Part shown: positions 1 to 43,233 of the stretch, piece after piece
How positions within the stretch are numbered: the stretch's first letter is position 1
Layout of the letters: every line of letters starts with the position of its first letter
From: a virus
DNA: 43,233 bases
Reading direction: 5' to 3' (one strand)
IMG/VR virus record: IMGVR_UViG_3300042114_000008
The notes under the pieces: model-generated
The model's database searches: none
Told to the model about the DNA's origin: nothing
What the model saw: the letters and a program-made list of their open reading frames with translations, nothing else
Made by a program: the position numbers and the translations under genes

Positions 1-120
1 CAGTTGTTTCTGCAGGTTTTTGTGCAGTTGTTTCTGCAGGTTTTTGTGCAGTTGTTTCTGCAGGTTTTTGTGCAGTTGTTTCTGCAGGTTTTTGTGCAGT
101 TGTTTCTGCAGGTTTTTGTG
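1..120 (-). repeat. Five perfect tandem copies of a 24-nt unit (CAGTTGTTTCTGCAGGTTTTTGTG on + strand). The same array occurs at 43110..43229.
   Basis: Direct reading: units at 1-24, 25-48, 49-72, 73-96 and 97-120 are identical. On the minus strand each unit encodes AQKPAETT in the frame of the flanking gene. Confidence 0.95.
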
Positions 121-136
121 TTACTTCTTGTGACAT
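1..136 (-). CDS. 5' part of a gene cut by the window boundary (MSQEVT followed by QKPAETTA repeats). It continues at 43233..42838.
   Basis: ATG at 136-134 is preceded by TAAGGAAT (RBS). The frame stays open through the repeats to position 1. The same frame at the other window end runs into the 75-aa ORF 42838..43065. Confidence 0.7.
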   Translation of the reverse strand, partial: MSQEVTQKPAETTAQKPAETTAQKPAETTAQKPAETTAQKPAETT

Positions 137-157
137 ATTTATTCCTTATGTATTAGT

Positions 158-192
158 TTAAAATAAAAGGACTAGTTATTACACTAGCCCTT
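158..192 (-). terminator. Intrinsic terminator downstream of the major capsid gene
   Basis: Minus strand reads AAGGGCTAGT-GTAATA-ACTAGTCCTT, a 10-bp stem with one G.U pair, followed by TTATTTTAA. It lies just after the capsid stop codon (210-212). Confidence 0.6.
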
Positions 193-209
193 ATTGTTTA
201 TACTACAGA

Positions 210-1256
210 TTAGTTACCTGAAGTATAGTCGTTGTAATGTTTAACAGTTACAACAGCATCAGCAGCGATGTGCTCTAATCTTACAATCCAAGCTTGATTT
301 AAGATTGTACAACCAACAATTGCTTTCCATCCAATAGTACCAACTTGGTCAAGTGGGTCATTAGAACCAGCAGAACCAATAGGTTTAACGATTGTTTGAA
401 TACCTTGTTTACCTCTTACAGTAGTTGTTGCATAAGCATCAGCTCCAAAGATAAGAGTTTGTTCTACAATGTTTTCACCAGTAGCATCTACAGTACCATT
501 GTCAAGAGTAATAATTCCCTCGTCATTGTTAGACTCAATGAATCTTACATCCATTAATCTACCAACTTCATTGTCGTGAAGCTTAGCACCAGAATTAGCG
601 TAATCTTCCATATCTTGCCAACCATCTAATCCTCTTAAAGATTCAGTTGTATAGATAGAACATACACCAACATAAGCACTTCTTACAGGCTTAGTACCAA
701 TTTTATTAGTACCATCAATCATCATTCCTATTTTCTTAGCACCTTGAGCTTTTAACTTAAGGATAGCTTTTTTAACATCAGCTTTAGTAATGTCTTTAGA
801 ACCTGTAATTACAGCTTCTCTTGAAATTGCACCACCACAGAAAACAACATTTGTTCCACCTCTAAGTGCATTTCTTTTTACGGCTTCCATAGATTGAGAA
901 GCGTGGTCACCCATAACATTTAAGAAATCACTTTGAATCTTTCTGAAATCATATAAATCTAATTCATCAGTATATGTTACATAATCTCCATAGTGAGCAA
1001 CTTCATACTCAACCTCTTCTCTTACAATAGTTCTAGCTTGTTTAACAGTACCGTTATACTCAGCAAGAGGAGTAGTTGTTGGTAAGATATTTTTATATCT
1101 AATTGCAAAACCTTTCTTTGTATTGCTATTTGCAGGGATAGATTTAGTTTGTGCATACTTATCCCAGATAAGCATAGGTACAATTCTTTCTAGCAATGTT
1201 TGGTCATAAACCGCTAGTACTTTAGGTGATACGAAACCAGCTCTTGTGTTTGGCAT
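210..1256 (-). CDS. Major capsid protein (HK97-fold class, probably N4 gp56-type)
   Basis: 348 aa with an AAGGAT RBS. It is the last gene of a portal-scaffold-capsid triplet and is followed by a strong terminator. Size and the C-terminal DPLDQVGTIGWK...ILNQAWIVRLE region resemble podoviral major capsid proteins. Confidence 0.75.
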   Translation of the reverse strand: MPNTRAGFVSPKVLAVYDQTLLERIVPMLIWDKYAQTKSIPANSNTKKGFAIRYKNILPTTTPLAEYNGTVKQARTIVREEVEYEVAHYGDYVTYTDELDLYDFRKIQSDFLNVMGDHASQSMEAVKRNALRGGTNVVFCGGAISREAVITGSKDITKADVKKAILKLKAQGAKKIGMMIDGTNKIGTKPVRSAYVGVCSIYTTESLRGLDGWQDMEDYANSGAKLHDNEVGRLMDVRFIESNNDEGIITLDNGTVDATGENIVEQTLIFGADAYATTTVRGKQGIQTIVKPIGSAGSNDPLDQVGTIGWKAIVGCTILNQAWIVRLEHIAADAVVTVKHYNDYTSGN

Positions 1257-1310
1257 ATTTAATCCTTGTGTGAAAATAAAATTAGTTTTATGTCATTTCG
1301 GACATAGAGA

Positions 1311-2261
1311 CTATTCGGCGTCTCTAAAATCCATATCCATCAATTCTGAAGCAGACATATTCCATATATCATCAACACTTAAATCTGAAGCTTTTTTAGA
1401 AGTGTTATCTCCACCACCACCAGCACCAGCTTTAGCCCTTAACTCTTGCTCTCTAGGATTTACCTGTCGTTGTTGAGTTGCAGAAACTTGCTTTTGTTGA
1501 GGTGCTTGAGATTGTTGTTGTTGTCCAGCGTACATTTTAGCTCCTACTGCGTTGTAATGTTCTAAGAAACTACCACCTACAGTGTGAGTTAATTTTAAAG
1601 CTTCAGCAATTACTGGCTGAGCTAAACCATCTTTTACTTGTTTTGTAAAAGCTCTATAATCATTAACATTAGTACCAACTACATCTATAAATTCTTTAGG
1701 TAAAGATGGTACTATTCTTGCTAATTCACTAGACAACTCAGCGTCTTTTTGAACTTCAAATGCAGCAATATCTAAATCAGAGTATTCAACTAAGCTTGAA
1801 GCTGGAGTATAATCTCCACTGAATTCTTCAACATCAAGTAAATCTACTTTAGCATCAGTTACTAACTTTTTAATAGCAGATATATTACCAGCTTTTAAAT
1901 CTTTAAGAAGCAATAGGTCTTCTTTTGAAATACCATTTGAATCTAATAAGTCAGGCTTATTAGCAGTAGTATTCTTAAAGTAAGTAGCTAATTCTTCTTT
2001 AGTGTCAAACTTTAATTCAATACCATTAACCTCAACAATTACATGGTCAGTTGATTGTGCTTGTTGATTTTCATTACCAGCTGATTGTCCTTCTTTGGAA
2101 GTCGTTTCTTGATTTGTGTTAACAGTGATATTGTCTTGAGTTTTAGGTAACTCATCATTTCCTGAATTGTTAATAGGGTTGCTATCATTGTTATCTCCTG
2201 TATTTTTATCGGCTTCAGCTTCAGCTATAAGCTTTTCTAGTTCGTTCTCAATTTCATCCAT
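1311..2261 (-). CDS. Scaffolding protein (putative)
   Basis: 316 aa, acidic and Q/N-rich with low-complexity and helical character. It sits between the portal and capsid genes and overlaps the portal stop by 8 nt. Confidence 0.55.
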   Translation of the reverse strand: MDEIENELEKLIAEAEADKNTGDNNDSNPINNSGNDELPKTQDNITVNTNQETTSKEGQSAGNENQQAQSTDHVIVEVNGIELKFDTKEELATYFKNTTANKPDLLDSNGISKEDLLLLKDLKAGNISAIKKLVTDAKVDLLDVEEFSGDYTPASSLVEYSDLDIAAFEVQKDAELSSELARIVPSLPKEFIDVVGTNVNDYRAFTKQVKDGLAQPVIAEALKLTHTVGGSFLEHYNAVGAKMYAGQQQQSQAPQQKQVSATQQRQVNPREQELRAKAGAGGGGDNTSKKASDLSVDDIWNMSASELMDMDFRDAE

Positions 2262-4296
2262 TAATATCTCCTCTTGCTATTTTAGCTAATTTTTCTTGCA
2301 TATCCATATACGATTCTCCAGGTCTAAGACTAGACTCTACTTGATGAGCTTCAGTTTTTGCTTTCTTCTCTTCGCTTTGTGCAAACTTGTATTGACTATC
2401 TGCATTAACTTTAATACCATCTAGTTGAGCTCTATTGGCAGCAACCATTGCAGCACTATTCATCTTGTTAATTTCAGCATACTCACGTTCAAGTTTAGCT
2501 TGAGCCATTTGCATATTAAGCTCAACCATTTTCTCTTGCATTGGATTAGGTTGTTCTTTATAAGTTCTAAGTTTAGTTGCATCTTCATACATATCAAACA
2601 AATCAAACATTTGAGCAACTAAAGCTTTTATTGCTTCTGGAGGAACTTCGTTATCTCCAAGTGCTTTTGTTTGTTGCATTAACATATTAAGTTGTTGTAG
2701 TTTCTGCATCTTGGCGACATCAGTTCCTACAGTAACTATAATACTTGCTTTGTTCATATCTTTAAATGCGTTCAAGTCATAGAACTTCTCAGCCATTACT
2801 TCTTCTGTATCATCTTTATCTCCGTTGCTATCAGTAGCAAACAATTCAATTATCTGTTCATCATCAAGAAATACCTCAGCCATTACTAACCACTCTTTAA
2901 ACATTCTAGATAGTAATCCAGAGATGTTTCTAACAAGTGCAGACATCTTTTGTTGAGACATCGTAAGACCATTTCCATTTGATTTGCTTATGTTATCCTG
3001 AGTTAAAGCAGGAGACATAGCAGTAATACCTGACATTTGATCAGTCTCATTACTAACCATTTGTAACATATTGAATACAGAATTTGGAATTGAATTGTAT
3101 TGACCGTCTGTAATACCGTCAGGTCTATTAACCATTATATAACGATTTCTATTCTTAAGCCTAGTAAACTCTGTAAAGTCTAAAGCTCCTCTTTGAATAA
3201 ACTTTTGACCATTGTTTGCCAATGCTAAGTTATCAAGAATACCTTTAGTTATACCATTCTTAACATTCTGATTTTCAGAAAGAAAGAATGCCACAGATTT
3301 ACCCCATAAGCTAGTTGCTCGTTTAGAGTAGTTTACTTTATCGTATGGTATTTTACCAGATGGATATGGATTATCCATAACATCTATCAGATGGTCAAAG
3401 TCCTCAACCCAATATGCTACTATTGGTATTGATTTACCGTCACTATTAAGGTCATAAAATCCCCAGTAACTAATAAATTTAACTTTCTTTCTACCAAGAT
3501 TTGAACTTGTCTTGTTTAAGTCTACTCCATATTCTAAAGAAGCAGAATCTCTTACAGACTCAAGCACACTACTTGAACTAAATCCATTAGTATTACCATT
3601 GTTGATTTTAGTCTTTAATTCTGATAATTGTTCTTTAGAAAATAATCCCATTTCAACAATGTCATAGTAAGTCTTATATTCTTTCTCTATGAAGAATTTC
3701 ATCTCTTCCATAGTTCTTGCAGTATTATCTGGAAAACAGTTCTCGTTTCTACATACTCTTGCAGTAGGATGATTAGCGATAGTTAATGTTTTGACATATT
3801 CAACATCAAACATACTATTTTCTAATTCCTTGATATAGACAGGGTTTCTGTCGTCTGCAAGTATAGCTTCCATTGGAAGTGTTTTCCGTTCTTTGATATT
3901 CCTCTGTTTGTAATTCCATCCAGTTCTAATCCAAGTAGTACCTTCTCTTAGAGCAGTATCAACTAAATCTTCAATGAAATCTTCACGATTGAAGTCTCCA
4001 GAGAATGTATTATTTAACCAAGACTCAACTTTATCAGGATATCTTAGTCCACGAATATGTCCAAGCTTTGCAGGATTATTAGTTGATAGGAAAGGCTCAG
4101 TTATATTAGGCTTTTGCATCTCTATAATCTTAGCTATTTCCTTAACAAGTAATCTCTTGTTTGGAGCTTGCTTATCTACTCCTTCGTATGCGTCATTCCA
4201 TCTTGATATCAAGGTGTCAATGTTAGCCTTTGAGCTTTTAGCATTCTCATAATCTTTACTTAAGTCTTTATAGACCTTTTCTTTATCATATGCCAT
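2254..4296 (-). CDS. Portal protein (putative)
   Basis: 680 aa, lying immediately upstream of the scaffold and capsid genes as in T7 gp8-gp9-gp10. No other ORF of portal size is present in the head module. Confidence 0.65.
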   Translation of the reverse strand: MAYDKEKVYKDLSKDYENAKSSKANIDTLISRWNDAYEGVDKQAPNKRLLVKEIAKIIEMQKPNITEPFLSTNNPAKLGHIRGLRYPDKVESWLNNTFSGDFNREDFIEDLVDTALREGTTWIRTGWNYKQRNIKERKTLPMEAILADDRNPVYIKELENSMFDVEYVKTLTIANHPTARVCRNENCFPDNTARTMEEMKFFIEKEYKTYYDIVEMGLFSKEQLSELKTKINNGNTNGFSSSSVLESVRDSASLEYGVDLNKTSSNLGRKKVKFISYWGFYDLNSDGKSIPIVAYWVEDFDHLIDVMDNPYPSGKIPYDKVNYSKRATSLWGKSVAFFLSENQNVKNGITKGILDNLALANNGQKFIQRGALDFTEFTRLKNRNRYIMVNRPDGITDGQYNSIPNSVFNMLQMVSNETDQMSGITAMSPALTQDNISKSNGNGLTMSQQKMSALVRNISGLLSRMFKEWLVMAEVFLDDEQIIELFATDSNGDKDDTEEVMAEKFYDLNAFKDMNKASIIVTVGTDVAKMQKLQQLNMLMQQTKALGDNEVPPEAIKALVAQMFDLFDMYEDATKLRTYKEQPNPMQEKMVELNMQMAQAKLEREYAEINKMNSAAMVAANRAQLDGIKVNADSQYKFAQSEEKKAKTEAHQVESSLRPGESYMDMQEKLAKIARGDING

Positions 4297-11661: not shown

Positions 11662-12101
11662 TAATACTCCTCAATATAAGATGGACGGTCATTGACAAAG
11701 TCTTGCAGTATATGCTCTGATTGCATATCGTAATCTCTAGTTAAATGATATTCGTGTTTTGCTATGTCATCCCAATACTGCTTCATATAGATACCACTTC
11801 TTGCTGTTTCAATACTAGCCAATATGTACAATGCTACGGCTTGATATAAATCTGCATCCATTGTTATTTCTTCAGTCAAAGAAGTAATTTCCTCAGGAAC
11901 TGTAATGAAAAAATCTCTGTCTATTCTCTTTAATACTTTCTGACCAACTGATATATTTGAAGCATAAGCTATTGGTACTGTATCTTTACATACTTGTAGT
12001 ATAGCAGTATTAATCCTTGTTAAGAATTGTGGAATTTCCATAGTTTCATCTCTGTTTGAAGATAAACTTAATATCAATGTTTTTAAATTGTTTCCTGTCA
12101 T
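11661..12101 (-). CDS. Hypothetical protein (possible head-tail adaptor, by position only)
   Basis: 146-aa ORF coupled to the TerL stop and to the next ORF's start. Confidence 0.3.
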   Translation of the reverse strand: MTGNNLKTLILSLSSNRDETMEIPQFLTRINTAILQVCKDTVPIAYASNISVGQKVLKRIDRDFFITVPEEITSLTEEITMDADLYQAVALYILASIETARSGIYMKQYWDDIAKHEYHLTRDYDMQSEHILQDFVNDRPSYIEEY

Positions 12102-15423: not shown

Positions 15424-15468
15424 AAAGTTCCCTTGAGTTATATTCCCAACCTCTCTCAACCAATACAA

Positions 15469-15606
15469 CTAAGTATAATACAATCTCAAAGCTCTTCGTT
15501 TTGCAGTAATTTCATTAGGAGCGAATACAGTAATTCTATCTCCGTTAATAACAACATCCCATTTATTATTATCTGTACATTCTACAGTTACTTCATCTAT
15601 TATCAT
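15469..15606 (-). CDS. 45-aa hypothetical protein (not in the ORF track)
   Basis: Translation: MIIDEVTVECTDNNKWDVVINGDRITVFAPNEITAKRRALRLYYT. Its ATG overlaps the upstream TGA (ATGA coupling). It exactly fills the gap between the flanking ORFs. Confidence 0.45.
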   Translation of the reverse strand: MIIDEVTVECTDNNKWDVVINGDRITVFAPNEITAKRRALRLYYT

Positions 15607-16977: not shown

Positions 16978-16979
16978 AA

Positions 16980-29090: not shown

Positions 29091-29122
29091 AAAAAAAAAT
29101 GTCAAGGCTTAGAAGCCCTGAC
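29091..29122 (-). terminator. Rho-independent terminator after the RNA polymerase genes
   Basis: Minus strand reads GTCAGGGCT-TCTA-AGCCTTGAC, a 9-bp stem with one G.U pair, followed by A and T9. It begins 3 nt after the stop of ORF 29125..30204. Confidence 0.8.
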
Positions 29123-31863: not shown

Positions 31864-31907
31864 ATTGCCTTTGGCACTGTAACGCTTACGGTTTAGTTCA
31901 TTGAACT
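31864..31907 (-). promoter_or_regulatory. Early-gene leader: 20-nt conserved motif plus a 5-bp/3-nt-loop hairpin
   Basis: Minus strand reads AGTTC-AAT-GAACT (31895-31907), then GTAA-GCG-TTAC, then GTTACAGTGCCAAAGGCAAT (31864-31883). The last contains the mini-hairpin TGCC-AAA-GGCA and ends 26 nt before the ATG. Confidence 0.45.
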
Positions 31908-32488: not shown

Positions 32489-32516
32489 TGTAAAATCCTT
32501 TGTGATTTGATTGTTT

Positions 32517-32589
32517 GTTGCCTTTAGCACAGTAACTCTTGTAGACCATATCAGTGTTGATATCCGTTGTATGTACAAGCTTGGCTTGT
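32517..32589 (-). promoter_or_regulatory. Early-gene leader: 20-nt conserved motif plus hairpins
   Basis: Minus strand reads ACAAGC-CAA-GCTTGT (32575-32589; 6-bp stem, 3-nt loop), then ATATCA-ACAC-TGATAT (32548-32563), then GTTACTGTGCTAAAGGCAAC (32517-32536). The last is 17/20 identical to the motif at 31864-31883 and ends 28 nt before the ATG. Confidence 0.45.
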
Positions 32590-33192
32590 GGTGTGTTAGA
32601 GTTGGTTATGTATTGTGTGTTAGATTGGTTGGTAATGGCTTATGTGTTTGCTGTGGTGTTTGAGGGTTCCTCATAACCCTAGCCTTACCATTTCTCCTAC
32701 CATCACATAACAGTGTTAGTGCTTGTAGTAGTAAAAGGAAGCTTAGTACGAATTACTAGCTTAGCATAGGGGGGGGGTGGTGTGGTTTTAGCCAGTTTCA
32801 CAGGCTCTGGGGTTGTGGGGGTTCATTCGTAATTTTTTTTGTGAAATTTTCGAGATATGAGCCACATTCAGTTGTTTTTAAGTTTGCATAAACCACATAT
32901 ATGCAACATAACTTTATATATTACACACATAATATCAACATATTATTATGCAGTAAGCAACATAATACGCACATATTGTATGTAACAAAAATCTCTTTGT
33001 ATTATAAAGGTAGCCAATAGATAGAGAATCCACTGCTGGCTACGGTTGTGGGCTCGACTGTTCTGCCTAACTACGGGTTAACGCAAGATATACAGATGGT
33101 ATATACATAGAAATGACTAGCATTAACTATGGTTGTAGATACGGTGTGTTCAATGGTGTGTGCTATGTGATAGCAGGTGGATTGAAGCACAG
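32590..33192. other. 0.6-kb non-coding block between the last late gene and the first early gene. Candidate genome terminus, terminal repeat or control region.
   Basis: No ORF with an RBS on either strand. It contains G9 (32769-32777), G4 and G5 runs (32809-32821) and T8 (32833-32840). Direct repeats: GTGTGTTAGAGTTGGTT (32591) and GTGTGTTAGATTGGTT (32615), and GCAACATAA twice (32903, 32957). Hairpins lie at 32663-32680, 32739-32762 and 33010-33043. Confidence 0.6.
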
Positions 33193-33394: not shown

Positions 33395-33835
33395 CTAAGC
33401 CTTTAATTCAAAGTGTGGATAGTCTTGTAGTGTGTGCTCAGCAATGTCACCATCGCCATCCCAGTCTGCACCCCATACAAGCTCTACTCCTAATCTCTTA
33501 GCACATTTCATAACAACATCTTTTTGTTTATAAAATCTATCTAAATTGTTCCAATCAACTGGATATGGACAAATGTCGATAGCAAGGCTTGGAAGATGAT
33601 TGTGTTTAGATTTTTTAACAGTACCATCTTTATCGGTTACAGTTTTACCAGTCTTAACCCATCTTCCATTACTAAAGACTCTTCCTTGTTTATAAAGAGC
33701 TAGCTGCTCAGATGGAGTTCTATGTCCAAATACTATAGTAATGTCAAGCTCTTTAATAACTTCTAACATTACTCTTTTAATATCTGGATGACATGTATCT
33801 AATTTAGTTAAAGAAGCTTTACCAAAATTAGGCAT
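33395..33835 (-). CDS. Endolysin, peptidase M15 (VanY / L-alanyl-D-glutamate peptidase type)
   Basis: Motifs: HRTPSEQLALYKQGR, SKHNHLPSLAIDI (SxHxxGxAxD-like zinc site) and DYPHFEL. The start was set at the ATG at 33835, which has an AAAGGAG RBS. Confidence 0.8.
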   Translation of the reverse strand: MPNFGKASLTKLDTCHPDIKRVMLEVIKELDITIVFGHRTPSEQLALYKQGRVFSNGRWVKTGKTVTDKDGTVKKSKHNHLPSLAIDICPYPVDWNNLDRFYKQKDVVMKCAKRLGVELVWGADWDGDGDIAEHTLQDYPHFELKA

Positions 33836-34058
33836 TGAATGTCTCCTTTCTAAGTTCGTTATATGCTTCATTGAACATATCAGCTCTAGTTGGATTAGCT
33901 TTTGATTTAGCTATTCCATCAATCATAATAGTTGCTATATCTTTTGTAATACCATCAGATGTATCAGTTAATAATCTATTAATACCATATCCAATAGCAG
34001 ATTTAGCAACCTCAGTTCCAGCAACTCTTAAGAGAAATTGCAATATAAATGTTAACAT
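33828..34058 (-). CDS. Small lysis-cassette protein with a hydrophobic N-terminus (holin candidate)
   Basis: 76 aa beginning MLTFILQFLLRVAG, directly upstream of the endolysin and overlapping it. Confidence 0.3.
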   Translation of the reverse strand: MLTFILQFLLRVAGTEVAKSAIGYGINRLLTDTSDGITKDIATIMIDGIAKSKANPTRADMFNEAYNELRKETFNA

Positions 34059-34067
34059 AAGATTCCT

Positions 34068-34343
34068 TTACTTAATAACAAGACCAAGTAATGCAACTAT
34101 TACTGCGCTAATGACAATCCAATTAACCTTCCTAAGCGAATCTTCAATATCATCAAGCCTAGCATTTGCAACTTTTTGTCTTTCTTGAAGAACTCCAACT
34201 TCTGTGTTTACACGATTATGAAATTCATCACCTTTCTCTATACTAGCAGCAAGCTTATTAAGCGTTGCATCAAGATGAGTTAACTTCTCTGCTAATATAA
34301 TAGAATTTACGTCAGTTGTTCTTCTTTCTTGAAGTGGTGGCAT
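34068..34343 (-). CDS. Small coiled-coil protein with a C-terminal TM anchor (holin or lysis-accessory candidate)
   Basis: 91 aa ending VNWIVISAVIVALLGLVIK. It lies between the giant virion protein gene and the endolysin. Confidence 0.3.
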   Translation of the reverse strand: MPPLQERRTTDVNSIILAEKLTHLDATLNKLAASIEKGDEFHNRVNTEVGVLQERQKVANARLDDIEDSLRKVNWIVISAVIVALLGLVIK

Positions 34344-34380: not shown

Positions 34381-37300
34381 TTATTCTCCTTCGTTTCTGT
34401 ATTCTCTTATAGATTTATATCTAGTCTTGTCATATGGTGTATCGTACTTAGGAGCGTCTGTGTTGTCCTCGCTAGTAGCACTGTATGTGCTTTCATTAGA
34501 ACCTATGCTAGAGGTATCATTATCTTTCAGATAAGTCTGTTTGTCATCAGATACCTCGCCTACTTCATCAGAAGCAAATGCATCATATATCATCTGAACT
34601 ACTCCACGATTATCAACATACTCTCCATCAGAATTTCTATATGGAGCAAGTCTATCTTTCCATAACAAGTCAGGCTCAGTTATTGGATTACGAACTACTT
34701 CATCATCCATATAGTATGCTCCTTGTTTGTAAATGTCTCTGTATACTCCAGGAATTAACTTGTGTATATTTCTAGTTTCATATAGAGCACCATCTCCAGT
34801 TACGAAACCATATGGCATATCAACTAAAGATTCAACTGGAGACACAGAGCTAAGATGTGTATTAGTCTCATCACTAAGATATAGAATACTAAGAGCTATA
34901 GCAGCAGCTTTTAATGGATTATGCTTAACAGTTTTAGCAACAGCAGGCAATACAGAAGCAGCCCACTTAGCAAATACAGCTAATCCATACTTATCAATAG
35001 CATCAATAAACACTGGAGCTATCTCATCCATTTGACCGAACATATCATTTGTTCTCATCATAGCATCGATATTGTTTGAACCAGAGTCTTTAAATCCACG
35101 GTACATCATATATCTAGCTTGGAAGTCAAGGTAAGAGAAAGCGTCCTTAGCAAATCCACCAGTTATTGCATTTTGATTAAACATAATTTCATTTGTTATT
35201 CTATCTAAATGTCCACCAGTTAATTCACTAAGCATATTATTAAGCATTGAACCATTAGTTCTAACACCGTCTAATGTATTGATCGACAATCCATCTTTAA
35301 GCATTTGTACTACTTCATTATCTCTATACTTAGCTATAAGTTCAGGAGTTAATTTACCTTGTGCAGTAGCTAAATCAAATTCAGCAGTAATAGCTTTGAA
35401 TTCTCTCCAGGCTCCAATAGCATCTTTATTGTATCTTAATGCCTTAATTGGATTACCGTGAGCTAACATATGGTAGCTATACGACACTAGAAAGGCATTC
35501 TTAAAGGAACTTAAATTCTTCAAAACATTACTCTGTTTAAATATTGACACTGTATCTTTAAGTAATCTATCAGCTACTTTAAGACCATAGCTAGTATCAG
35601 CATTAGATAAACTAAATTCATTACGACCTATTAGTTTATCCTTGAATTCTTTGTTTACATATACAATTTCATCTCTAGCAAACTTAGGCAATCTATACGA
35701 TTCTTCAAGTGATAACTTAACGAATCCATCTTGCTTATTTTTACTAAACATAGATTTGAATGTATCATCACTATGTGTCAATATCTCTGTGAAAGTATTT
35801 AGTTGAGCATCTTTTCTTCTGAGTGTAGCTTCAGTATTACCAAGCATCATAGCTAAGTCTCGTTTAAGACCCATCTTAGTTCTTATTTCTAAATCAGCAA
35901 CACTCATAAATCCTCTAGCAGATACTTTAAGTCCGTGCTTCTCTGCATATTCATAAGGATTAGCAACATCAGTTACTTTAATTCCTTTGACATCTTCTCC
36001 AACTTTAGCTGACATACTATCAAAACCAAGTGCTCCTGCTTCAAGTTTAGGATCTGCATCGTGTACATATCGTTTCATCTTGTTATCCCAAATCTTAGGA
36101 TTATCAAATGAATCTTGTATATACCCTTTTTGCATAAGATTTAAGTCATTAGTAAATGCAAATATAGCAGTACTTCTATCTTTCATGCTTTTGGCAATAG
36201 ATAGCAAGTCTTGTACTTCAGCAGTATCAACATTCTTAGCATACCATTCCCATCCATCTACATTGTCCATAGCTTTAATTGAAATCATTTGGTCAATGAT
36301 ATCTTCATATCCTTTTAGATTGTAATGTTCAGCTATAACACTAGCATTATTAGCATAGAATCCTCTTTGGTTTTCACCTCTACCTATTCCATATGTACTT
36401 GCATCTATATGCTTTTGCATTCTAGAATATAGTTGATAGTGGTCTGCAAACCAAACATCAGCTTCAGCCTTACTCTTTATACCACGAAGTCCAATAGCGT
36501 CAGTAAAGAATACATTTCTCATATATTCATCTTGATTCTTATCTTTCAATAACTTCTGGATATGCTTAGTAAGTCTATCACCAGCTTCATCAGCCAATTT
36601 CTTAGACGGTGTTGTTATTCCTAATATTTTAGAAAATGTCTTATGTTCTTTAGAGTATTCATATTTATTCTTAAGATGCTTACCAGTATCACTTATAGAA
36701 TCCAAGAATTCTTTAAGCATACCTTTATGTTCAGCATTTAAGTTTTTGTTTACTCCATCGTATGCAGTTTCTCCATACTTTTTTGAAGCTTCTCTTAATG
36801 CAGATAATTGCTCATCTACTATATGAGATTCTCTCCATTTAGTTTGCATCTCTGCAAATGCTGGATTCTTTTCAGCCATATCGTCAAGAATACTCTCAAC
36901 TTTATTGTAAACTATAATGTCAAAACCATTAACTTTATCAAGAGTATCTTCTATAGACTTCCATATACCATTAGCTCTTGGAGACATATCTCCAGACTTA
37001 GATTTAAAGAAATCAAATATTCTCTTAGCATTACCAGCAAATGAAGCTTTGTCAAATCCAGATTTCATACCTTCGCTAAACGATTGTTTCGCTTGTTCAG
37101 AACCAGCTTCAGCATTCTTAAGTCTTTCAGCCTCTTCTAATACTTTACGAATTTCTTCGTCAAACATATCGAACTTACCAGCTTCAGTTTTAATTGCATC
37201 ATCAATTTGTTCAGATGGAATATCAATAGGCTTTCCACTTGTAATAGCTTCATCTATTGATTTAGCTGTAGCAGTACCAGATTCTAATACTTCACTTGCA

Positions 37301-40300
37301 GTCTGTCCTCTAGTTCCAGAACCGCTAGACATAATGTCATTAGCTAGCTTATTTCTAATCTCTCTAATTCCAGACATCTTAGTTCCAACTGGATATCCTC
37401 TTTCAGTGAAGAATTGTCTATCACCTTTAATTGATGATTTAAGATTTGGATTATATTCAACTCCAGCTCTAAATCTATTATACAGATATTCATTAGCAGA
37501 TTTCCAAGCACCTTTGCTAACTCCATCTGGAGCAGGTATCATAGTTTTCTCACTAAATCCTTTACCTTGAATTGCAAGAGCTAATTGTCTTTCAAATACA
37601 TCGTCTCCAGCTTTTGGTATAGACACTTTAGTATGAACGATTTCATCAATCATAGCATCTACTATTGTATGATGCTCTTGATTTCTGTGAGTCATTGTAG
37701 TCATATATGAAATCATTGTTTCAATCTTAGTCATACCAGTTGCTGGAACCATTTCACTCCAAGGCTTTTTAACTATCTCTTTAACTTCGTTTTGAAAATC
37801 TTCTACCTTCAAGAATTCTCTGCTTTTATCTTTAAAGATTTTATCTAAATTTCCTTTACGAGGCATATCAATTTTACCTTCACTAAGTTCTTTAATAGCC
37901 TTATTACCAAAGTCTTCATCTTGTAATTGTTTCATAAGACTTCTGTATTTAGCATCAACTTCTTTTCGCATTTCTTTTGGATAGGTTATTGCATCGTGTT
38001 TAGTCTGAAGATTTAAATCTTTTCTAATTGTACGAGCAATCCAAGCATCAATACTATGAATAAATCTAGGCATTAAAGCCTTAGAAAATTCATCTTTAGT
38101 ACCATTTACTATATTAACTTTACCAATAGTTTTAGTTTTTCCACCTGATGTTTCAACTATGTTATAAGTCTTATATCCAGACAATTCTATTTCAACTTTC
38201 TTACCGTCAGGTAATGTCCAAGAGAATTTACCAGTAGTGTTAGCTTTAAATACTTCATCCATCTTTTTAGCAAATTCTCCAATAGCAGGAACTTCTTTAG
38301 CCATTGCAGAGTAATACTCTTGCACAAACTTATTAGCATTATCAATTGTTTTAAGCCAAGGTAAATCAGCAAGTGCAGCCTCTGCAGTACCTTTCTCCAT
38401 AGAGCCATACATATCAGGAGTATATACTGTCTTAACATCATCTTTACTTACAGCCGAACCTTTTAGATTCTCAAAGAAACCGTCGTCAGCTTTATTAATA
38501 TGATTTCCAACAGTCTCTCTGAAGTCAATTCCATCTGCTTTCTTAAATACTCTTTGTGCAAGCTTAACATCTCCAGTGATTACAGATATAAGAGCAGCAA
38601 CACTATTAACAGCGTCACTAGTCTCTTCTGAATGCTTAATTTTAAAGACATTCTCTTTATCAGTTAATCCTAATTTATTAGAATTATAATCTTTAAGCAA
38701 TGTATTAAACTCTATATTAGCAGCTTCCTTAGTTTTAGCAACATCTTTTGCTGGAACATTTGGCATATGCTTATCTACAAGCAATATTCTTGCTCTTCCA
38801 ACATCTTTGAAAAAGTCAGGATTAGCGTCTATATCTCTCTTCTCAGATAGACTAAGTTTATATTCGAAAGGTCTTTCAGCATTTTTACTATATCTATCAA
38901 GTATTCCTTTTTCTATATAATCAGCAACTGCTTGTCTCTTGTTAACTATTACTTTGTTTTTTTCATAGTCAAACTCAAATGACTTATCTTTTGCAATACC
39001 TCTTTTTTCTTTGATAGATTTAACTGATACTTTTCTAGGAATTACCATTATATCATCATAAGCTTTAGTTCTTGCTTCACCAAATTTACTAACTTCATCA
39101 GCAGTAGTTAATTTACCAGCTACTTGTTCTCGTGCAGAGAATTCTTTATCAAGTCTTTTAGACTCTCTAAATGCTAGTTCATCAGACTTAATCTCGCCAT
39201 TATTGAAAGCAGTCACATCGTACAGTCTGTTTCTATGTCCCTCTAGTTCAGCAACTCCTTGTGGAAATTTATACTTAACATTATCAGGTATATTGTTTAT
39301 GTCTAGGTTTTCTCTTGGAAATGCAAGTTTTGCCTTAATCTTTAAATCATCAGATGCTTTAAGCATTGCAGTCTTATCGACTTTATCAATTACAGCTTTA
39401 GCAATAAGTGGACCTCTAGCATCTTCAGATAGTGAATGATATTTTTCGGTATGATATGCAGCAGTTCCACCAGCTTTATTTTTGTTAGCATCTGATGCAA
39501 GTTTAAACTCAGTTTTAATATTACTTGAATAATCTATTGGTTCATACTCTGATATCTTAGCATTTTCAACTTTAGATTTAACTGCATTATCTATATCGTC
39601 TTTAGTTGGTATAGTTATGTTATTAGCTCTAGCTTCTGCATATAATGCTCTTTTTCTATAGAGTTGTTTTTGAGTATCATCAGTAACTTTATCAGCAATT
39701 TGATTATACAATTTAGACTCAAATTTATCTCTAAGTTGAACTTTCTCAATATCAGATAGATTTTTAGTAGATTTTATTTTAGCTTCTGTCTTACCATAAG
39801 CATCAAGATTGTTTACAGCTTTGCCGAAAGATTTCATTGCATCATCTGCATATGCATCTTCTTGTCCAGCTTTCATACGGTTAAGTTTAAGCGATGCAGC
39901 TTGACTATCTCCACCTAAATGAGATGTGAGATAATCACTAGCATACTGTCTACCACCAGTATCAGTAAAGGTTTCTTGTAATTTACTACCTCCAGGTAGA
40001 ATAACTTCATCTTTCTTCTTAAATCCTTCAAGTCTTCTCTTTTCAGCAATGCTTCTAACCTTAGGGTCTACCACTTCTTGAGTCTTAATACCTTTTTTCA
40101 TAGTTCTAGTTTTATCAGTAACAACTGCAGGACCACCTTTAGGAGAACCTTCAGTATCTACAACATAATTCTTTAATGATGTTCCAGTGTATTTTTTAAC
40201 TGCAGTATCAAGACCTTCTACTCCAACTTCTAAAATATCAGCAGCAATCTCACGTGCTATAGGCTTAGCTATTTCAAATGCATTACTAACTTTATCTTTT

Positions 40301-41130
40301 ACTTTTTGAGTAGCAGTTGGAAGCGGAGCATCAACTCCAGTTCCACCGAATTTTCTAGAAGTAAAATCATAAGCTCTCATTAATGGTGCAGTACCAGCAG
40401 TACCAACAAATCCTACTGATGCATCAAGTAATGTTCTTTGCGCAATAGTATCTGGGTCTTCTTGAAGAACTGCTCCAACACCAGTTCCTACTGCTCCTAG
40501 TTTTAAAGCATTAGATGTAGCATCTTTAAGAAGAGCACCTCTAAGTTCAGACTTATAATCTTGTTTCATAAATTTAAGAGCATCATCAGATACAAAGTGT
40601 GCAGTAACATTATCAGCCAATTCTTTAGGCTTAGCATTTAGTGCGATTCTTGTATTAGACATAGCTCCAATTTTATAAAACGGAAGATATGCAACAGCTT
40701 CTGCTGCAAGTCCAGTAATATCTGAACCTAGTGTACTTCCACGATTTGCTACTTCTCTTTTAAAATCAAGATTAGCTTTAGTTGCAACATCAGATAACTT
40801 ATCTGTAATATCTGGAGTAGCATCATATGAAAATGGTTGAGTAATAGCACTTCCAATAGCTTGGAATATGCTAGAGTCTTTGTTTGTTTTTACAAAATTA
40901 TCTGCAAATCTTTCAGGATTCATAGCATTTTCAATTACATTTCCAGTGCTAGAAATTCCTTTCATTAAAACATTACCAATAGTTGGAGTTATAGTTTCAA
41001 GAACTCCAACTTTCTTATCTCCTGCAATTCTACTTGCTTCGTCAAATCCATACTTAAGCTCATTTTCACGCATTTGTTTCGGAGTTAAGTATCCTCCTGT
41101 GTAAGCAGGAGCTTTTTCTAAATTAGCCAT
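34381..41130 (-). CDS. Giant virion-associated protein with a central T7-like single-subunit RNA polymerase domain (N4 vRNAP analogue)
   Basis: 2249 aa. SKDDVKTVYTPDMYGS is motif B-like. MPRFIHSIDAWIARTIRKDLNLQTKHDAITYP parallels NLIHSIDGYIARRI...IHDAYG of the 359-aa RNAP subunit and T7 FVHSQDGSHLR...IHDSFG. It sits in the late/virion operon at the position of the T7 internal core proteins. Confidence 0.7.
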   Translation of the reverse strand: MANLEKAPAYTGGYLTPKQMRENELKYGFDEASRIAGDKKVGVLETITPTIGNVLMKGISSTGNVIENAMNPERFADNFVKTNKDSSIFQAIGSAITQPFSYDATPDITDKLSDVATKANLDFKREVANRGSTLGSDITGLAAEAVAYLPFYKIGAMSNTRIALNAKPKELADNVTAHFVSDDALKFMKQDYKSELRGALLKDATSNALKLGAVGTGVGAVLQEDPDTIAQRTLLDASVGFVGTAGTAPLMRAYDFTSRKFGGTGVDAPLPTATQKVKDKVSNAFEIAKPIAREIAADILEVGVEGLDTAVKKYTGTSLKNYVVDTEGSPKGGPAVVTDKTRTMKKGIKTQEVVDPKVRSIAEKRRLEGFKKKDEVILPGGSKLQETFTDTGGRQYASDYLTSHLGGDSQAASLKLNRMKAGQEDAYADDAMKSFGKAVNNLDAYGKTEAKIKSTKNLSDIEKVQLRDKFESKLYNQIADKVTDDTQKQLYRKRALYAEARANNITIPTKDDIDNAVKSKVENAKISEYEPIDYSSNIKTEFKLASDANKNKAGGTAAYHTEKYHSLSEDARGPLIAKAVIDKVDKTAMLKASDDLKIKAKLAFPRENLDINNIPDNVKYKFPQGVAELEGHRNRLYDVTAFNNGEIKSDELAFRESKRLDKEFSAREQVAGKLTTADEVSKFGEARTKAYDDIMVIPRKVSVKSIKEKRGIAKDKSFEFDYEKNKVIVNKRQAVADYIEKGILDRYSKNAERPFEYKLSLSEKRDIDANPDFFKDVGRARILLVDKHMPNVPAKDVAKTKEAANIEFNTLLKDYNSNKLGLTDKENVFKIKHSEETSDAVNSVAALISVITGDVKLAQRVFKKADGIDFRETVGNHINKADDGFFENLKGSAVSKDDVKTVYTPDMYGSMEKGTAEAALADLPWLKTIDNANKFVQEYYSAMAKEVPAIGEFAKKMDEVFKANTTGKFSWTLPDGKKVEIELSGYKTYNIVETSGGKTKTIGKVNIVNGTKDEFSKALMPRFIHSIDAWIARTIRKDLNLQTKHDAITYPKEMRKEVDAKYRSLMKQLQDEDFGNKAIKELSEGKIDMPRKGNLDKIFKDKSREFLKVEDFQNEVKEIVKKPWSEMVPATGMTKIETMISYMTTMTHRNQEHHTIVDAMIDEIVHTKVSIPKAGDDVFERQLALAIQGKGFSEKTMIPAPDGVSKGAWKSANEYLYNRFRAGVEYNPNLKSSIKGDRQFFTERGYPVGTKMSGIREIRNKLANDIMSSGSGTRGQTASEVLESGTATAKSIDEAITSGKPIDIPSEQIDDAIKTEAGKFDMFDEEIRKVLEEAERLKNAEAGSEQAKQSFSEGMKSGFDKASFAGNAKRIFDFFKSKSGDMSPRANGIWKSIEDTLDKVNGFDIIVYNKVESILDDMAEKNPAFAEMQTKWRESHIVDEQLSALREASKKYGETAYDGVNKNLNAEHKGMLKEFLDSISDTGKHLKNKYEYSKEHKTFSKILGITTPSKKLADEAGDRLTKHIQKLLKDKNQDEYMRNVFFTDAIGLRGIKSKAEADVWFADHYQLYSRMQKHIDASTYGIGRGENQRGFYANNASVIAEHYNLKGYEDIIDQMISIKAMDNVDGWEWYAKNVDTAEVQDLLSIAKSMKDRSTAIFAFTNDLNLMQKGYIQDSFDNPKIWDNKMKRYVHDADPKLEAGALGFDSMSAKVGEDVKGIKVTDVANPYEYAEKHGLKVSARGFMSVADLEIRTKMGLKRDLAMMLGNTEATLRRKDAQLNTFTEILTHSDDTFKSMFSKNKQDGFVKLSLEESYRLPKFARDEIVYVNKEFKDKLIGRNEFSLSNADTSYGLKVADRLLKDTVSIFKQSNVLKNLSSFKNAFLVSYSYHMLAHGNPIKALRYNKDAIGAWREFKAITAEFDLATAQGKLTPELIAKYRDNEVVQMLKDGLSINTLDGVRTNGSMLNNMLSELTGGHLDRITNEIMFNQNAITGGFAKDAFSYLDFQARYMMYRGFKDSGSNNIDAMMRTNDMFGQMDEIAPVFIDAIDKYGLAVFAKWAASVLPAVAKTVKHNPLKAAAIALSILYLSDETNTHLSSVSPVESLVDMPYGFVTGDGALYETRNIHKLIPGVYRDIYKQGAYYMDDEVVRNPITEPDLLWKDRLAPYRNSDGEYVDNRGVVQMIYDAFASDEVGEVSDDKQTYLKDNDTSSIGSNESTYSATSEDNTDAPKYDTPYDKTRYKSIREYRNEGE

Positions 41131-41139
41131 ATAGCAACC

Positions 41140-42138
41140 TTATTTTTTCTTTTGTTTAATTAAGACGTTATTAACTCCAGGAGCATTAGTCTCATCAATA
41201 GTATAATTATCAGCAACAAAGTTATAGAATGCATTTTGAATTTGGTCTTCGTTATAAGATTTAAATTCAGGTCTTCGTGTAATAATATCATTAAATTTAT
41301 TTGTAGCATCTTGTAGATTTGAAAGACTTTGTTCTCCAACTACAGTTTTTGGAACAATTGAATTACCAATAGAATCAAGTAGTCCTCTTGGTACTTTCTG
41401 ATGAAATGCATTGAATGCGGTAGCAGGTTTCTTAATAAGTCCACCTTCTACACCACTATCAACTTTGCCTTGAGCAATCTTTTCAGTAGGAACGTGTTTA
41501 TCAAATATACTAGGAGGAGGACTTCCTTTAGGTTGAGTAATTCCAGTATTAACATTTTGAACCATATTCTGATTCTTAGTATTCTCAAGAGTTACAGCAT
41601 TTGTTCCATATTGTTTAGCATTTTGCATTCCTGCATCGGCAGTATATTTACTAGACGCTAAAGAATTATTAGATACAAAAGCATCAGCGTTAGCTTTAAT
41701 GCTAGCACCTTGTACGGAAGCATTAGCAGATACTTGACTAGAAGCAAGACTATACTTACCAGTAATCTCAGCCTTTTCTTTCTCAGTAGTTGCCTTAAGC
41801 ATTTCGGCTTGATAATCAGACTCAAGTTTAGACATCTTAGCAGCATAATCTAATTTATGACCAGCCATAGCAGCATCAAAAACTTTTAATGCATTTTCTT
41901 TAGAAGCATTAGCTGTAGTATTCGCTACATCTAGAGTTCCTTGATTTTGTAATAATTGTTCTTGAAGCTTATTTTGTGCTAGTGCTGCAGCAGCTTTTTT
42001 AGTATCATCTGCAGCAAACTGGTTAGTAACTACTTTCTGCATACCACCTAAAGCATTATTCATAAGCAATGTATCTTGAGCAGTTCCTTGAAAATTGACT
42101 TGTCCACTTGGAGCAGCTATGTTTCTATTAAATACCAT
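41140..42138 (-). CDS. Virion protein (possible internal/ejection protein)
   Basis: 332 aa, A/Q/N/S-rich, immediately upstream of the giant RNAP-containing protein. Confidence 0.35.
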   Translation of the reverse strand: MVFNRNIAAPSGQVNFQGTAQDTLLMNNALGGMQKVVTNQFAADDTKKAAAALAQNKLQEQLLQNQGTLDVANTTANASKENALKVFDAAMAGHKLDYAAKMSKLESDYQAEMLKATTEKEKAEITGKYSLASSQVSANASVQGASIKANADAFVSNNSLASSKYTADAGMQNAKQYGTNAVTLENTKNQNMVQNVNTGITQPKGSPPPSIFDKHVPTEKIAQGKVDSGVEGGLIKKPATAFNAFHQKVPRGLLDSIGNSIVPKTVVGEQSLSNLQDATNKFNDIITRRPEFKSYNEDQIQNAFYNFVADNYTIDETNAPGVNNVLIKQKKK

Positions 42139-42147
42139 GGATACTCC

Positions 42148-42828
42148 TTATTTAATATTCTGAAGTCTAGTTGTTTCTGCAGCTTTGCGAGCATTATAAT
42201 CAACTTGAGCTTGAGGACTTGTATCTCTAGAAGTCCAATCAATAGCAGACAGTCCAGCCTTATCATCAATAAATTGACCATATTGCTTATTCATCATATC
42301 TCTGTTGTAGGCATTGTTAGCTTTAGTTTCTTTAAGAGAAGCTCTAGAATTCATATAACCTAATCCTTGAAATAATGCACTTGCAGTATTTTTAAAAGCA
42401 TCAGTTCCTACGAAATCTTTAATAGCTGTACCACTACCAGTTAACGGACCCCAGTCAAAGTTGAAGCTTGATGTAGATTCTGGAGTATTTTGTTGAATTC
42501 CTGGAACTACAAATGCTTCATTTGAGGTATCTAATATATTATCTACAGCAGGATAATCAGAACTATATTTGTATGGAGATTTAACACCATCTAAAACACT
42601 AATTCCACCAGCTCCAAGTCCAGTAAAATCAGTAATATTAGACGGAGTTAAATAATTACTTGATTGTTGAAGCATATCACTAGGATTGTATTTTGCAGTA
42701 GAATAATCAAAACCGCTATCTCCAATTCCTCTCCATAATTCATCAGTCTTTATAGTCTTAACTGGAGCGTTAGGATTCTTTGTTGCAATTTTTCCTGCGT
42801 ATTTCTTTTTGTTTTCAGGTTTTGCCAT
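42148..42828 (-). CDS. Virion protein (possible internal/ejection protein)
   Basis: 226-aa ORF in the late operon. It shares the stop-RBS-start junction TAAGGTTGC(C/T)ATATGGC with the giant gene. Confidence 0.35.
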   Translation of the reverse strand: MAKPENKKKYAGKIATKNPNAPVKTIKTDELWRGIGDSGFDYSTAKYNPSDMLQQSSNYLTPSNITDFTGLGAGGISVLDGVKSPYKYSSDYPAVDNILDTSNEAFVVPGIQQNTPESTSSFNFDWGPLTGSGTAIKDFVGTDAFKNTASALFQGLGYMNSRASLKETKANNAYNRDMMNKQYGQFIDDKAGLSAIDWTSRDTSPQAQVDYNARKAAETTRLQNIK

Positions 42829-42837
42829 ATGGCAACC

Positions 42838-43233
42838 TTACAGCACTACAGATACTGCATATAAAGGTTCATTTACTTCTTTAGCAAAACCTTTTTCATC
42901 AACTCCGTGAGAAATTCTTGTCGCTTCTTGTAAGAACTTAACAATTCCTTGTGGCAATAACACTTCAGTGTTTTGTTGAAAGTCAAATGTAAATTCATTA
43001 ATAGAAACAAATATAGAATGTTTCTTTTCAGCAGAAGATAAACTATGAACTTTAACTTTAGTCAATTCTCCAAGAGGATGAACTTTCTTAGTTTCTGCAG
43101 GTTTTTGTGCAGTTGTTTCTGCAGGTTTTTGTGCAGTTGTTTCTGCAGGTTTTTGTGCAGTTGTTTCTGCAGGTTTTTGTGCAGTTGTTTCTGCAGGTTT
43201 TTGTGCAGTTGTTTCTGCAGGTTTTTGTGCAGT
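42838..43233 (-). CDS. 3' part of the boundary-spanning gene: AQKPAETT repeats, then ...QKPAETKKVHPLGELTKVKVHSL... and a 75-aa C-terminal domain
   Basis: The frame of track ORF 42838..43065 (TTG-started in the track) stays open upstream through the repeat array to 43233. It is the same frame as the repeats at 1..136. Confidence 0.7.
   Translation of the reverse strand, partial: TAQKPAETTAQKPAETTAQKPAETTAQKPAETTAQKPAETTAQKPAETKKVHPLGELTKVKVHSLSSAEKKHSIFVSINEFTFDFQQNTEVLLPQGIVKFLQEATRISHGVDEKGFAKEVNEPLYAVSVVL
43091..43233 (-). repeat. 24-nt tandem array: a 19-nt partial unit, five perfect units and 4 nt
   Basis: Units begin at 43110, 43134, 43158, 43182 and 43206. Positions 43110-43229 are identical to 1-120. 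Confidence 0.95.

Follow-up and report, generated by a model that had tools for sequence, protein, structure and literature searches.

A compact phage genome with an N4-type giant polymerase and a split early RNA polymerase, apparently from a sister lineage of the Schitoviridae

The stretch of DNA analyzed here, called the window throughout, is the 43,233-nt IMG/VR virus record IMGVR_UViG_3300042114_000008. It encodes a 2,249-residue giant protein with a polymerase core and, separately, the two subunits of a split RNA polymerase (RNAP), both of which have counterparts in phage N4 of the Schitoviridae. The G+C content is 33%, and a tRNA scan found no tRNA genes in the window. The same 24-bp tandem repeat is present at both ends (the first and last ~120 nt), one JGI contig spans the end-to-start junction, and five independent assemblies of the phage measure 43,027–43,233 bp. 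Because the ends overlap, the junction is spanned and the assemblies agree, the window is a complete, circularly closed assembly of ~43.1 kb and no fragment. Every open reading frame (ORF) with a family match in the PHROG and Pfam searches lies on the minus strand, and the minus-strand gene set accounts for 93.5% of the window. On the plus strand, eight ORFs reach 100 amino acids (aa) or more; all are embedded in minus-strand genes, and none of the eight has a PHROG match. A sequence-only reading of the window had placed all supportable genes on a single strand, which is borne out by these results, and its coordinates for the three polymerase-family ORFs are exact (34381-41130 for 2,249 aa, 30318-31229 for 303 aa and 29125-30204 for 359 aa).

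As transcribed, the genome opens with a 704-bp leader, small early ORFs, RNAP1, RNAP2, a terminator-like hairpin and further small ORFs. These are followed by genes for a primase, a 5'-3' exonuclease, a Sak4-like protein, a single-stranded DNA-binding protein (SSB), an ATP-dependent ligase and an Mre11-like exonuclease, and then by a putative small terminase subunit (TerS), the large terminase subunit (TerL), tail genes, portal, gp57-like scaffold and major capsid protein (MCP). Across the window ends the order continues with genes for proteins of 127, 226 and 332 aa, the 2,249-aa giant protein, holin-like genes and an M15 endolysin (Table 1). The coding-strand GC skew is steady at 0.1–0.25 through the genome except over the early operon (~28–34 kb), where it is ~0 or reversed, a shift bounded by the 704-bp leader on one side and the post-RNAP2 terminator on the other.

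Table 1. Features of the window, in order of position.
Feature	Coordinates	Strand	Evidence
Portal-scaffold-MCP block	210..4296	-	
MCP, N4-gp56 family	210-1256	-	TIGR04387 1.5e-56, above cutoff; direct vs N4 2.5e-4
gp57-like scaffold	1311-2261	-	tblastn vs N4 gp57 7e-4
Portal	2254-4296	-	Pfam SU10_portal 6e-62; N4 gp59 3e-43
Tail/adaptor region: 146-aa, 506-aa, 595-aa fibre (DUF7483), small ORFs, 668-aa, 186-aa	4298..12101	-	family searches
Terminase genes, at the start of the late operon	12101..14181	-	
TerL	12101-13642	-	PHROG 38 7e-76; N4 gp68 8e-61
Putative TerS, 180 aa	13639-14181	-	conserved in relatives; no family match
Remainder of replication/recombination module, as a block	14263..22869	-	syntenic in relatives L061, L067
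Mre11-like exonuclease	14263-15468	-	PHROG/Pfam
ATP-dependent ligase	15854-16720	-	PHROG/Pfam
SSB	18406-19062	-	PHROG/Pfam
Sak4-like	19874-20593	-	PHROG/Pfam
5'-3' exonuclease	22027-22869	-	PHROG/Pfam
Primase, 762 aa, N4 gp43 homologue	23010..25298	-	PHROG 2135 2e-67; phmmer vs gp43 1.6e-25
Terminator-like hairpin, 9-bp stem then T9, begins 3 nt after RNAP2	29101..29122	-	intrinsic-terminator scan
RNAP2-like subunit, 359 aa; motifs A, B, C	29125..30204	-	Pfam, PDB, phmmer
RNAP1-like subunit, 303 aa; T/DxxGR motif FDFRGRIY	30318..31229	-	PHROG, phmmer
22-nt motif AGNGTTACNGTGCNAAAGGCAA, copy 1; candidate early promoter, ~50 nt upstream of the early-ORF ATG at 31837	31865..31886	-	
22-nt motif AGNGTTACNGTGCNAAAGGCAA, copy 2; ~52 nt upstream of the ATG at 32488	32518..32539	-	
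704-bp non-coding region between lysis genes and first early gene; C-rich tracts, short hairpins	32489..33192	-	gap list, sequence
Lysis cassette after giant gene: 91-aa (C-terminal transmembrane segment), 76-aa, M15-type endolysin (33395-33871)	33395..34343	-	
Giant 2,249-aa protein, homologue of the N4 gp50 virion polymerase	34381..41130	-	PHROG, BLASTP vs own RNAP2, profile-profile
C-terminal domain, aa ~1500-2130, homologous to gp50 C-terminal domain	34741..36633	-	hhalign
Polymerase domain, aa ~385-1260	37351..39978	-	motifs T/DxxGR (DTGGR 390-394), A (D839), B (K896, K900, Y908), HSID (1025-1028), C (H1045-D1046)
N-terminal ~380 aa, all-helical	39991..41130	-	no profile relative; much shorter than the ~1,000-aa N4 N-terminal domain
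332-aa protein, putative ejection protein at N4 gp51 position, directly upstream of giant gene	41140..42138	-	synteny
226-aa protein, putative ejection protein at N4 gp52 position	42148..42828	-	synteny
127-aa post-capsid gene, high-end part: C-terminal domain region (within 42838-43065) and some repeats	42838..43233	-	

The giant protein is labelled hypothetical in the JGI gene call. Direct sequence searches gave no match to it in Pfam, NCBIfam or PDB, nor did tblastn against 50,697 phage records. PHROG 2051 (RNA polymerase) matches residues 839–1080 at 4e-11, and the phage's own RNAP2 matches it over motifs A to C (BLASTP, 2e-9). Word-indexed protein searches with the full protein, the family alignment or the core alignment went no further than near-identical copies or small RNAP2-type proteins. 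The family came to light when 1.84 billion representative proteins were searched exhaustively with HMMER, which yielded 44 proteins at E ≤1e-3, about 30 of them giants of 1,400–2,900 aa; most members of the giant-protein family fall between 1,870 and 2,480 aa. Across 25 homologues (18–41% identity), residues G821, D839, R871, K900, Y908, H1045, D1046, R1221 and E1225 are invariant and R394 and K896 nearly so. The T7-like motif residues described for the N4 virion RNA polymerase (vRNAP) are R424, D559, K670, Y678 and D951 (PMC2784036). In addition, the T/DxxGR stretch of the giant protein (DTGGRQY, 390–396) matches the C-terminus of the RNAP1 family with a profile E of 1.6e-5.

An AlphaFold model of residues 380–1270, with the family alignment as input, reached a predicted local distance difference test score (pLDDT) of 84.3 and a predicted template modelling score (pTM) of 0.81. 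Searching PDB with this model, Foldseek found 63 matches at E ≤1e-3, and all 50 of those listed are T7, mitochondrial or N4 RNAPII polymerases with a probability of 1.00; phage T7-like RNAPs likewise head the list from BFVD. Inserts and the placement of domains keep the global TM-scores low (0.22–0.30, and 0.48 on 6dt7_B). The core of the giant protein thus has the motifs and, in the model, the right-hand palm/fingers/thumb fold of a T7-like single-subunit RNAP. The N-terminal 420 aa were modelled poorly (pLDDT 57). Between motif T/DxxGR and motif A there is a mostly helical insert of ~420 aa (residues ~420–815, window 37900–39900) that is far longer than its equivalent in T7 or RNAPII. The insert is modelled confidently, has conserved residues of its own (D638, E651, R655, R659 and Y691) and occupies the place of T7's small palm-insertion module. 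In one relative, L046 (8654–14811), the giant polymerase gene consists of two consecutive ORFs of 1,629 aa and at least 426 aa, which could mean that the gene is truly split or else reflect a frameshift or a misassembly.

For comparison with N4 gp50, a profile was made from nine Schitoviridae vRNAPs of 3,022–3,629 aa (those of N4, Pokken, RHEph16, RD-1410W1-01, KpCHEMY26, D497, YH30, JSF3 and VBP32). The full-length profile of the giant-protein family aligns with it at a probability of 99.7% and an E of 3e-25; the 1,082 aligned columns reach from motif A almost to the C-terminus and put K896, K900, Y908 and D1046 on N4 R666, K670, Y678 and D951. Segment-wise hhalign traces the signal mainly to the C-terminal domain: residues 1500–2249 match at 8.9e-27 over 561 columns (N4 alignment columns 2798–3525), and the N-terminal 836 aa give no signal against the same profile. 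In N4, the C-terminal domain of gp50 (2124–3500) autoinhibits the polymerase, and the large N-terminal domain comprises about residues 1–997 (PMC13434306). The giant protein has no cysteine among its 2,249 residues, where ~23 would be expected from the rest of the proteome. Cysteine is also absent from nearly all members of its family and from nine of nine Schitoviridae vRNAPs; RNAP1 has two cysteines and RNAP2 has five. The cysteine-free nature of N4-like vRNAPs has been noted before (PMC2784036). The gene also sits in gp50's genomic place, after the capsid gene. In its domain plan (N-terminus, polymerase, gp50-type C-terminal domain) and its genomic position the giant protein therefore corresponds to gp50. 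It is a true homologue of the N4 virion polymerase, one whose polymerase module is much more canonical than N4's and in which the ~1,000-aa N4 N-terminal domain has no counterpart.

The second polymerase is encoded in the early region by two ORFs separated by 113 nt. RNAP1 matches PHROG 2166 ('N4-like RNA polymerase') at 2.3e-16 and N4 gp15 at 4.7e-5 (phmmer), and its motif region weakly matches T7 RNAP. RNAP2 matches Pfam RNA_pol (3.6e-18), the N4 RNAPII subunit RNAP2 in PDB (6dt7_B, 1.9e-20) and, by phmmer, N4 gp16 (7.8e-24). By these matches, the pair encodes an N4-type heterodimeric RNAPII. Many uncultured phages encode unsplit small T7-family RNAPs of 532–706 aa (loci L012–L023 and L027, on IMG/VR contigs of 7–74 kb); these match both the RNAP1 and the RNAP2 profiles and appear to be a single-chain N4 RNAPII type.

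The hairpin that follows RNAP2 is the probable end of the early operon and coincides with the change in GC skew. At the other end, the 704-bp region is the probable site of the early promoters, and the origin or the physical ends of the genome may lie there too; its equivalent in relative L010 is ~1.4 kb long. In promoter scans the sole statistically clear repeat was the 22-nt motif AGNGTTACNGTGCNAAAGGCAA, which occurs twice in the window where chance would give 0.01 copies; it was not seen at those loci of the relatives that were examined. A scan for sigma-70-like promoters found fewer sites than in shuffled sequence. Short hairpins with a 6-bp stem and a 3-nt loop occur at 33175–33161 and 32589–32575, within the leader, and at 32157–32143, ~330 nt downstream of the leader and within the early region; one of the three has a similarly located counterpart in L010. 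The N4 P1 and P2 hairpins were recovered in L007.

In the replication module, the exonuclease, Sak4-like protein and SSB carry PHROG annotation labels equal to those of N4 gp42, gp44 and gp45. The gp43-like primase has no Pfam, NCBIfam or PDB match, and it is the sole ORF of more than 401 aa in the interval from RNAP2 to TerS. Searches of Pfam, PHROGs and NCBIfam matched no large ORF to a DNA polymerase, and no separate helicase gene was detected in the window. In relatives L061 and L067 the whole module from primase to Mre11-like exonuclease was read, and neither contains a DNA polymerase. DNA synthesis may be left to the host replisome, or polymerization may be an activity of the gp43-like protein.

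MCP, portal and TerL are three of the seven hallmark genes used for N4-like viruses (PMC10654107). The tail/adaptor region varies among relatives, and phmmer detected no N4 match for the tail proteins. In relatives L050 (13092–15035) and L056 (13057–14407) the MCP gene is interrupted by ~0.25–0.9 kb, with both pieces matching the window MCP; an intron, an intein, a homing-endonuclease insertion or a frameshift could explain the interruptions. The 127-aa gene wraps around the window ends, so that its remaining repeats and start codon lie in 1–~156, and it is intact in L001:11121–11504. Its product begins with at least five perfect 8-aa repeats, QKPAETTA (a 24-bp unit), followed by a domain conserved in relatives, where homologues likewise follow the capsid gene; it may be a head-decoration or capsid-associated protein. 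The number of QKPAETTA repeats probably differs between the 43,027–43,233-bp assemblies. The 226-aa and 332-aa proteins have no family match and no cysteine. Their hydropathy profiles show no transmembrane segment, and their putative assignment as ejection proteins therefore rests on synteny and the absence of cysteine; gp52, gp51 and gp50 form the conserved ejection operon of N4 (PMC13434306). The endolysin matches PHROG 465 at 5e-35, and Peptidase_M15_4 was found on the JGI gene.

Scans of IMG/VR with the giant-protein and portal alignments identified 16 related loci, the longest of which are on contigs of 40,549, 43,281, 44,764, 45,317, 45,449 and 46,780 bp, making at least six long relatives. 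A single-protein scan with the primase returned only the same phage, and a scan of metagenome contigs made one addition that was already known. Identity to the window is 47–58% for the capsid, 38–46% for the portal and 24–32% for the best-matching vRNAP segment. Both split-RNAP subunits were seen in L010 alone (RNAP1 at 41%, RNAP2 at 43%), and RNAP1 in one further relative, L011 (29%). The relatives examined have the order TerS-TerL ... portal-scaffold-MCP-small proteins-vRNAP on one strand, and in L010 and L011 an early region with RNAP1 (in L010 also RNAP2) comes next on the same strand. The clade is a lineage, not a single oddity. As to its host, a 43,087-bp contig of the same phage at 99% identity (L041, DZCE01000009.1) was binned in a metagenome-assembled genome labelled Arcobacter nitrofigilis from a sulfidic cave ('SulCav_PC08_64'). 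This is a viral contig inside a bacterial genome bin, and binning is weak evidence; it hints at a Campylobacterota host, which fits the low G+C content. The hosts of the Schitoviridae records listed are alpha-, beta- and gammaproteobacteria, and a Campylobacterota host would lie outside these.

Known phages are distant. Megablast of the window's first 25 kb against the 50,697 phage records gave no match. The closest cultured capsid match, which is also the best of any record, has 33% identity (Stenotrophomonas phage StenR_269). For TerL, all 25 matches listed are Schitoviridae with genomes of 70–78 kb from many subfamilies, at a uniform 29–32% identity, and this uniform distance suggests an outgroup position. 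The literature searched describes nothing with this genome layout. The lineage thus apparently is undescribed, as the sequence-only reading had suggested (no nucleotide match over the first 25 kb, no tblastn match to the giant protein, capsid identity of 33% or less, TerL at 29–32%, a silent literature), and by sequence it would be a deep sister of the Schitoviridae.

Taken as a whole, the data are best explained if the window is the complete ~43.1-kb genome of a virulent podophage that belongs to a deep sister lineage of the Schitoviridae and follows an N4-type transcription programme, a reading we consider probable. By analogy with N4 (PMC13434306), the cysteine-free giant polymerase would be carried in the virion head and ejected alongside the DNA, as would the 226-aa and 332-aa proteins. 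Once inside, the polymerase would transcribe the early operon (~33.2 to 29.1 kb), ending at the terminator just after RNAP2. The early products RNAP1 and RNAP2 would then assemble into RNAPII and transcribe the replication and middle genes, and the co-oriented late operon would subsequently be expressed by the host polymerase or by read-through. Because no phage DNA polymerase gene was found, DNA synthesis would fall to the host polymerase or to the gp43-like primase.

Several points weigh against this reading. Packaging, ejection and the three-stage programme are carried over from N4. The lack of a DNA polymerase is a failure to detect one. N4-style hairpin promoters were looked for and had to be rejected as demonstrable elements: no significant hairpin is predicted for the 22-nt motif, and the three short hairpins are just marginally enriched and differ in their loop sequences. 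For the N-terminal ~380 aa of the giant protein, neither hhalign nor jackhmmer found a profile relative in the N4 N-terminal domain or in RNAP1, and nothing was found upstream of T/DxxGR. Most of all, the polymerase core taken alone aligns weakly with Schitoviridae vRNAP cores (hhalign E 0.0036), and by sequence and fold it is nearer to RNAPII/T7-type enzymes: its profile matches RNAP2-type small polymerases at ~1e-30 and N4 gp16 at 1.5e-16 and none of the Schitoviridae vRNAPs. Orthology with gp50 is therefore more secure for the C-terminal domain than for the polymerase module.

These scores are what would be expected if the giant were at heart an internal or ejection protein, as in other phages with N4-gp56-type capsids (Pagevirus, vB_PunP_Y3), whose RNAPII/T7-type core was either captured separately later or is ancestral, so that the protein would have no direct vRNAP orthologue. 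In keeping with this, in PDB the family profile has its top sequence match in N4 RNAP2 (7.5e-14) and not in the mini-vRNAP, Foldseek places an N4-like vRNAP segment at rank 39 (E 5e-4), far below the T7-type polymerases, and phages of 40–49 kb with an N4-type capsid and giant internal proteins do exist. However, the full-length profile alignment is colinear from motif A to the C-terminal domain, with K900, Y908 and D1046 exactly on N4 K670, Y678 and D951, and the domain order is identical to that of gp50. Moreover, N4 vRNAP is a highly divergent T7-like enzyme, and asymmetric divergence thus fits the scores equally well. We regard separate capture as unlikely and continue to favor homology of the giant protein with gp50.

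A second alternative, that the window is a T7-like phage with an Autographiviridae-type backbone and a horizontally acquired N4-type polymerase kit, is very improbable. It draws on the one-strand gene arrangement, the ~43-kb size and the coarse early-replication-structural order, and the sequence-only reading had combined a T7-like gene order with an N4-like polymerase kit. That kit is real and complete, consisting of the giant T7-like core and a split RNAP that matches N4 RNAPII, and AlphaFold and Foldseek found the single-subunit fold on which that reading had made the 2,249-aa protein's assignment depend. Its contrast with N4 is accurate as well: N4 measures 70,153 bp, has a gp50 of 3,500 aa and carries its late genes on the opposite strand. 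The gene order it listed stands, but not the 'T7-like' label. The N4 late operon, in its own direction, runs gp69, gp68 (TerL), tail, lysis, gp59 (portal), gp58, gp57, gp56 (MCP), gp55–gp51 and gp50 (vRNAP). The window's late operon likewise opens with terminase and, with the exception of the lysis cassette position, is colinear with N4 from gp69 to gp50. Capsid, portal, terminase, primase, Sak4, SSB and the gp57-like protein are all N4-type, and there is neither a full-length early RNAP nor a T7-type DNA polymerase. The likeness to T7 is superficial; the late operon is N4-colinear and merely co-oriented with the early and middle genes.

The least probable alternative, an ordinary Schitoviridae member of which the 43-kb contig is an incomplete or mis-assembled part of a ~70-kb genome, could appeal to the N4-type hallmark genes and to the frequency of partial metagenome contigs, but it is already largely refuted by the overlapping ends and the contig crossing their junction, the concurrence of five independent assemblies at 43.0–43.2 kb, the 40.5–46.8 kb of six relatives, the presence of every functional module in a window that is 93.5% coding, a TerL merely 29–32% identical to each Schitoviridae record among the matches listed, a giant polymerase ~1,250 aa shorter than N4's and a replication module in which no DNA polymerase was found here or in two relatives.

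With the sister-lineage reading retained, the observations can be joined into a minimal N4 strategy: a polymerase without the ~1,000-aa ejection/membrane domain and with a near-canonical core, which could either preserve the ancestral form that gave rise to the aberrant N4 vRNAP or have come from an independent joining of an RNAPII-type polymerase to a gp50-type ejection protein; linear 22-nt promoters; no DNA polymerase of its own; and Campylobacterota hosts (Arcobacter-like, from sulfidic caves). This composite is tentative, and we would be somewhat surprised if every part of it held. The N4 three-polymerase programme, with its 3,500-aa ejected polymerase, is known essentially from one family of ~70-kb phages, and a 43-kb sister lineage would show that N4's large N-terminal domain, a DNA polymerase of the phage's own and late genes pointing the other way can all be dispensed with. 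A polymerase shorter by ~1,250 aa would offer structural and ejection studies a smaller, more canonical virion polymerase, and the clade provides intermediate sequences with which an origin of N4 vRNAP from an RNAPII/T7-type enzyme fused to an ejection protein could be tested. On the practical side, hallmark-gene screens for N4-like viruses would probably overlook this clade, and Pfam and NCBIfam are blind to its giant protein. The survey of 'hidden N4-like viruses', for example, starts from matches to an N4-vRNAP profile and reserves high quality for contigs with all seven hallmark genes, including DNA polymerase (PMC10654107). Since such a filter needs the N4 vRNAP and DNA polymerase profiles, the present clade would probably be missed.

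Among known systems, T7 and the Autographiviridae share with this phage a podophage-size genome of ~40 kb, a single coding strand, the coarse early-replication-structural order and the use of a T7-family single-subunit RNAP. They differ in that the early RNAP here is two small N4 RNAPII-type subunits (303 and 359 aa) in place of one gene of ~800–900 aa, in that a second polymerase here lies within a giant late protein, and in that the terminase genes here precede the structural genes, which in T7 they follow. Capsid, portal and terminase are not T7-type, and no family A DNA polymerase was found here. Two further groups, vB_PunP_Y3 ('Poorviridae', Pseudoalteromonas, 48.9 kb) and Bacillus Pagevirus (~40 kb), are distant capsid relatives (26–31% identity) with genomes of 40–49 kb in which the head and tail genes are followed by a gene for a very large protein (3,421 aa and 1,679 aa). 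Their regulation differs from the window's in being lambdoid or host-dependent (Cro, O/P, sigma factor), and they lack RNAPII genes. Their giants do not match the core profile, a weak negative given that N4 vRNAPs are unmatched too; ORF30 of vB_PunP_Y3 was assigned to N4 RNAP by its authors through PSI-BLAST alone (PMC11654794). A very large polymerase that is packaged, ejected and starts early transcription is also found in the crAss-like phage phi14:2 as gp66 (PMC13434306). The likeness of the giant protein to it, as a very large packaged and ejected polymerase, is by analogy alone. The fold of gp66 is of the two-barrel kind, whereas the protein here is modelled with the right-hand T7-like fold.

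The closest comparison is with N4 and the other Schitoviridae, whose genomes are roughly 70 kb (59–80 kb). The vRNAP-bearing records among the matches listed measure 69–78 kb, with one exception of 55.9 kb, against ~43 kb here, which is 27 kb less than N4. The giant polymerase has 2,249 aa against 3,022–3,629 aa, lacks an equivalent of N4's N-terminal domain of ~1,000 aa, carries the ~420-aa helical insert between T/DxxGR and motif A, and has a core much nearer to the canonical T7/RNAPII motifs. There is no BLAST-level vRNAP similarity, and protein identities are 24–32%. Neither a DNA polymerase gene, a Schitoviridae hallmark, nor a helicase gene was detected here, and the late operon points the same way as the early and middle genes, in contrast to its position on the opposite strand in N4. 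Both encode, in the late operon, a giant protein that is free of cysteine and has a T7-like core and a C-terminal domain of common descent, and both have the two subunits of a heterodimeric RNAPII (gp15/gp16 homologues here). Also held in common are an MCP of the N4-gp56 family, a gp59-type portal, a gp68-type TerL and a gp43-type primase. Sak4, SSB and exonuclease are shared under N4's PHROG labels, in a module whose first gene is the primase here but the exonuclease in N4, and the late operon is colinear with that of N4 from gp69 to gp50.

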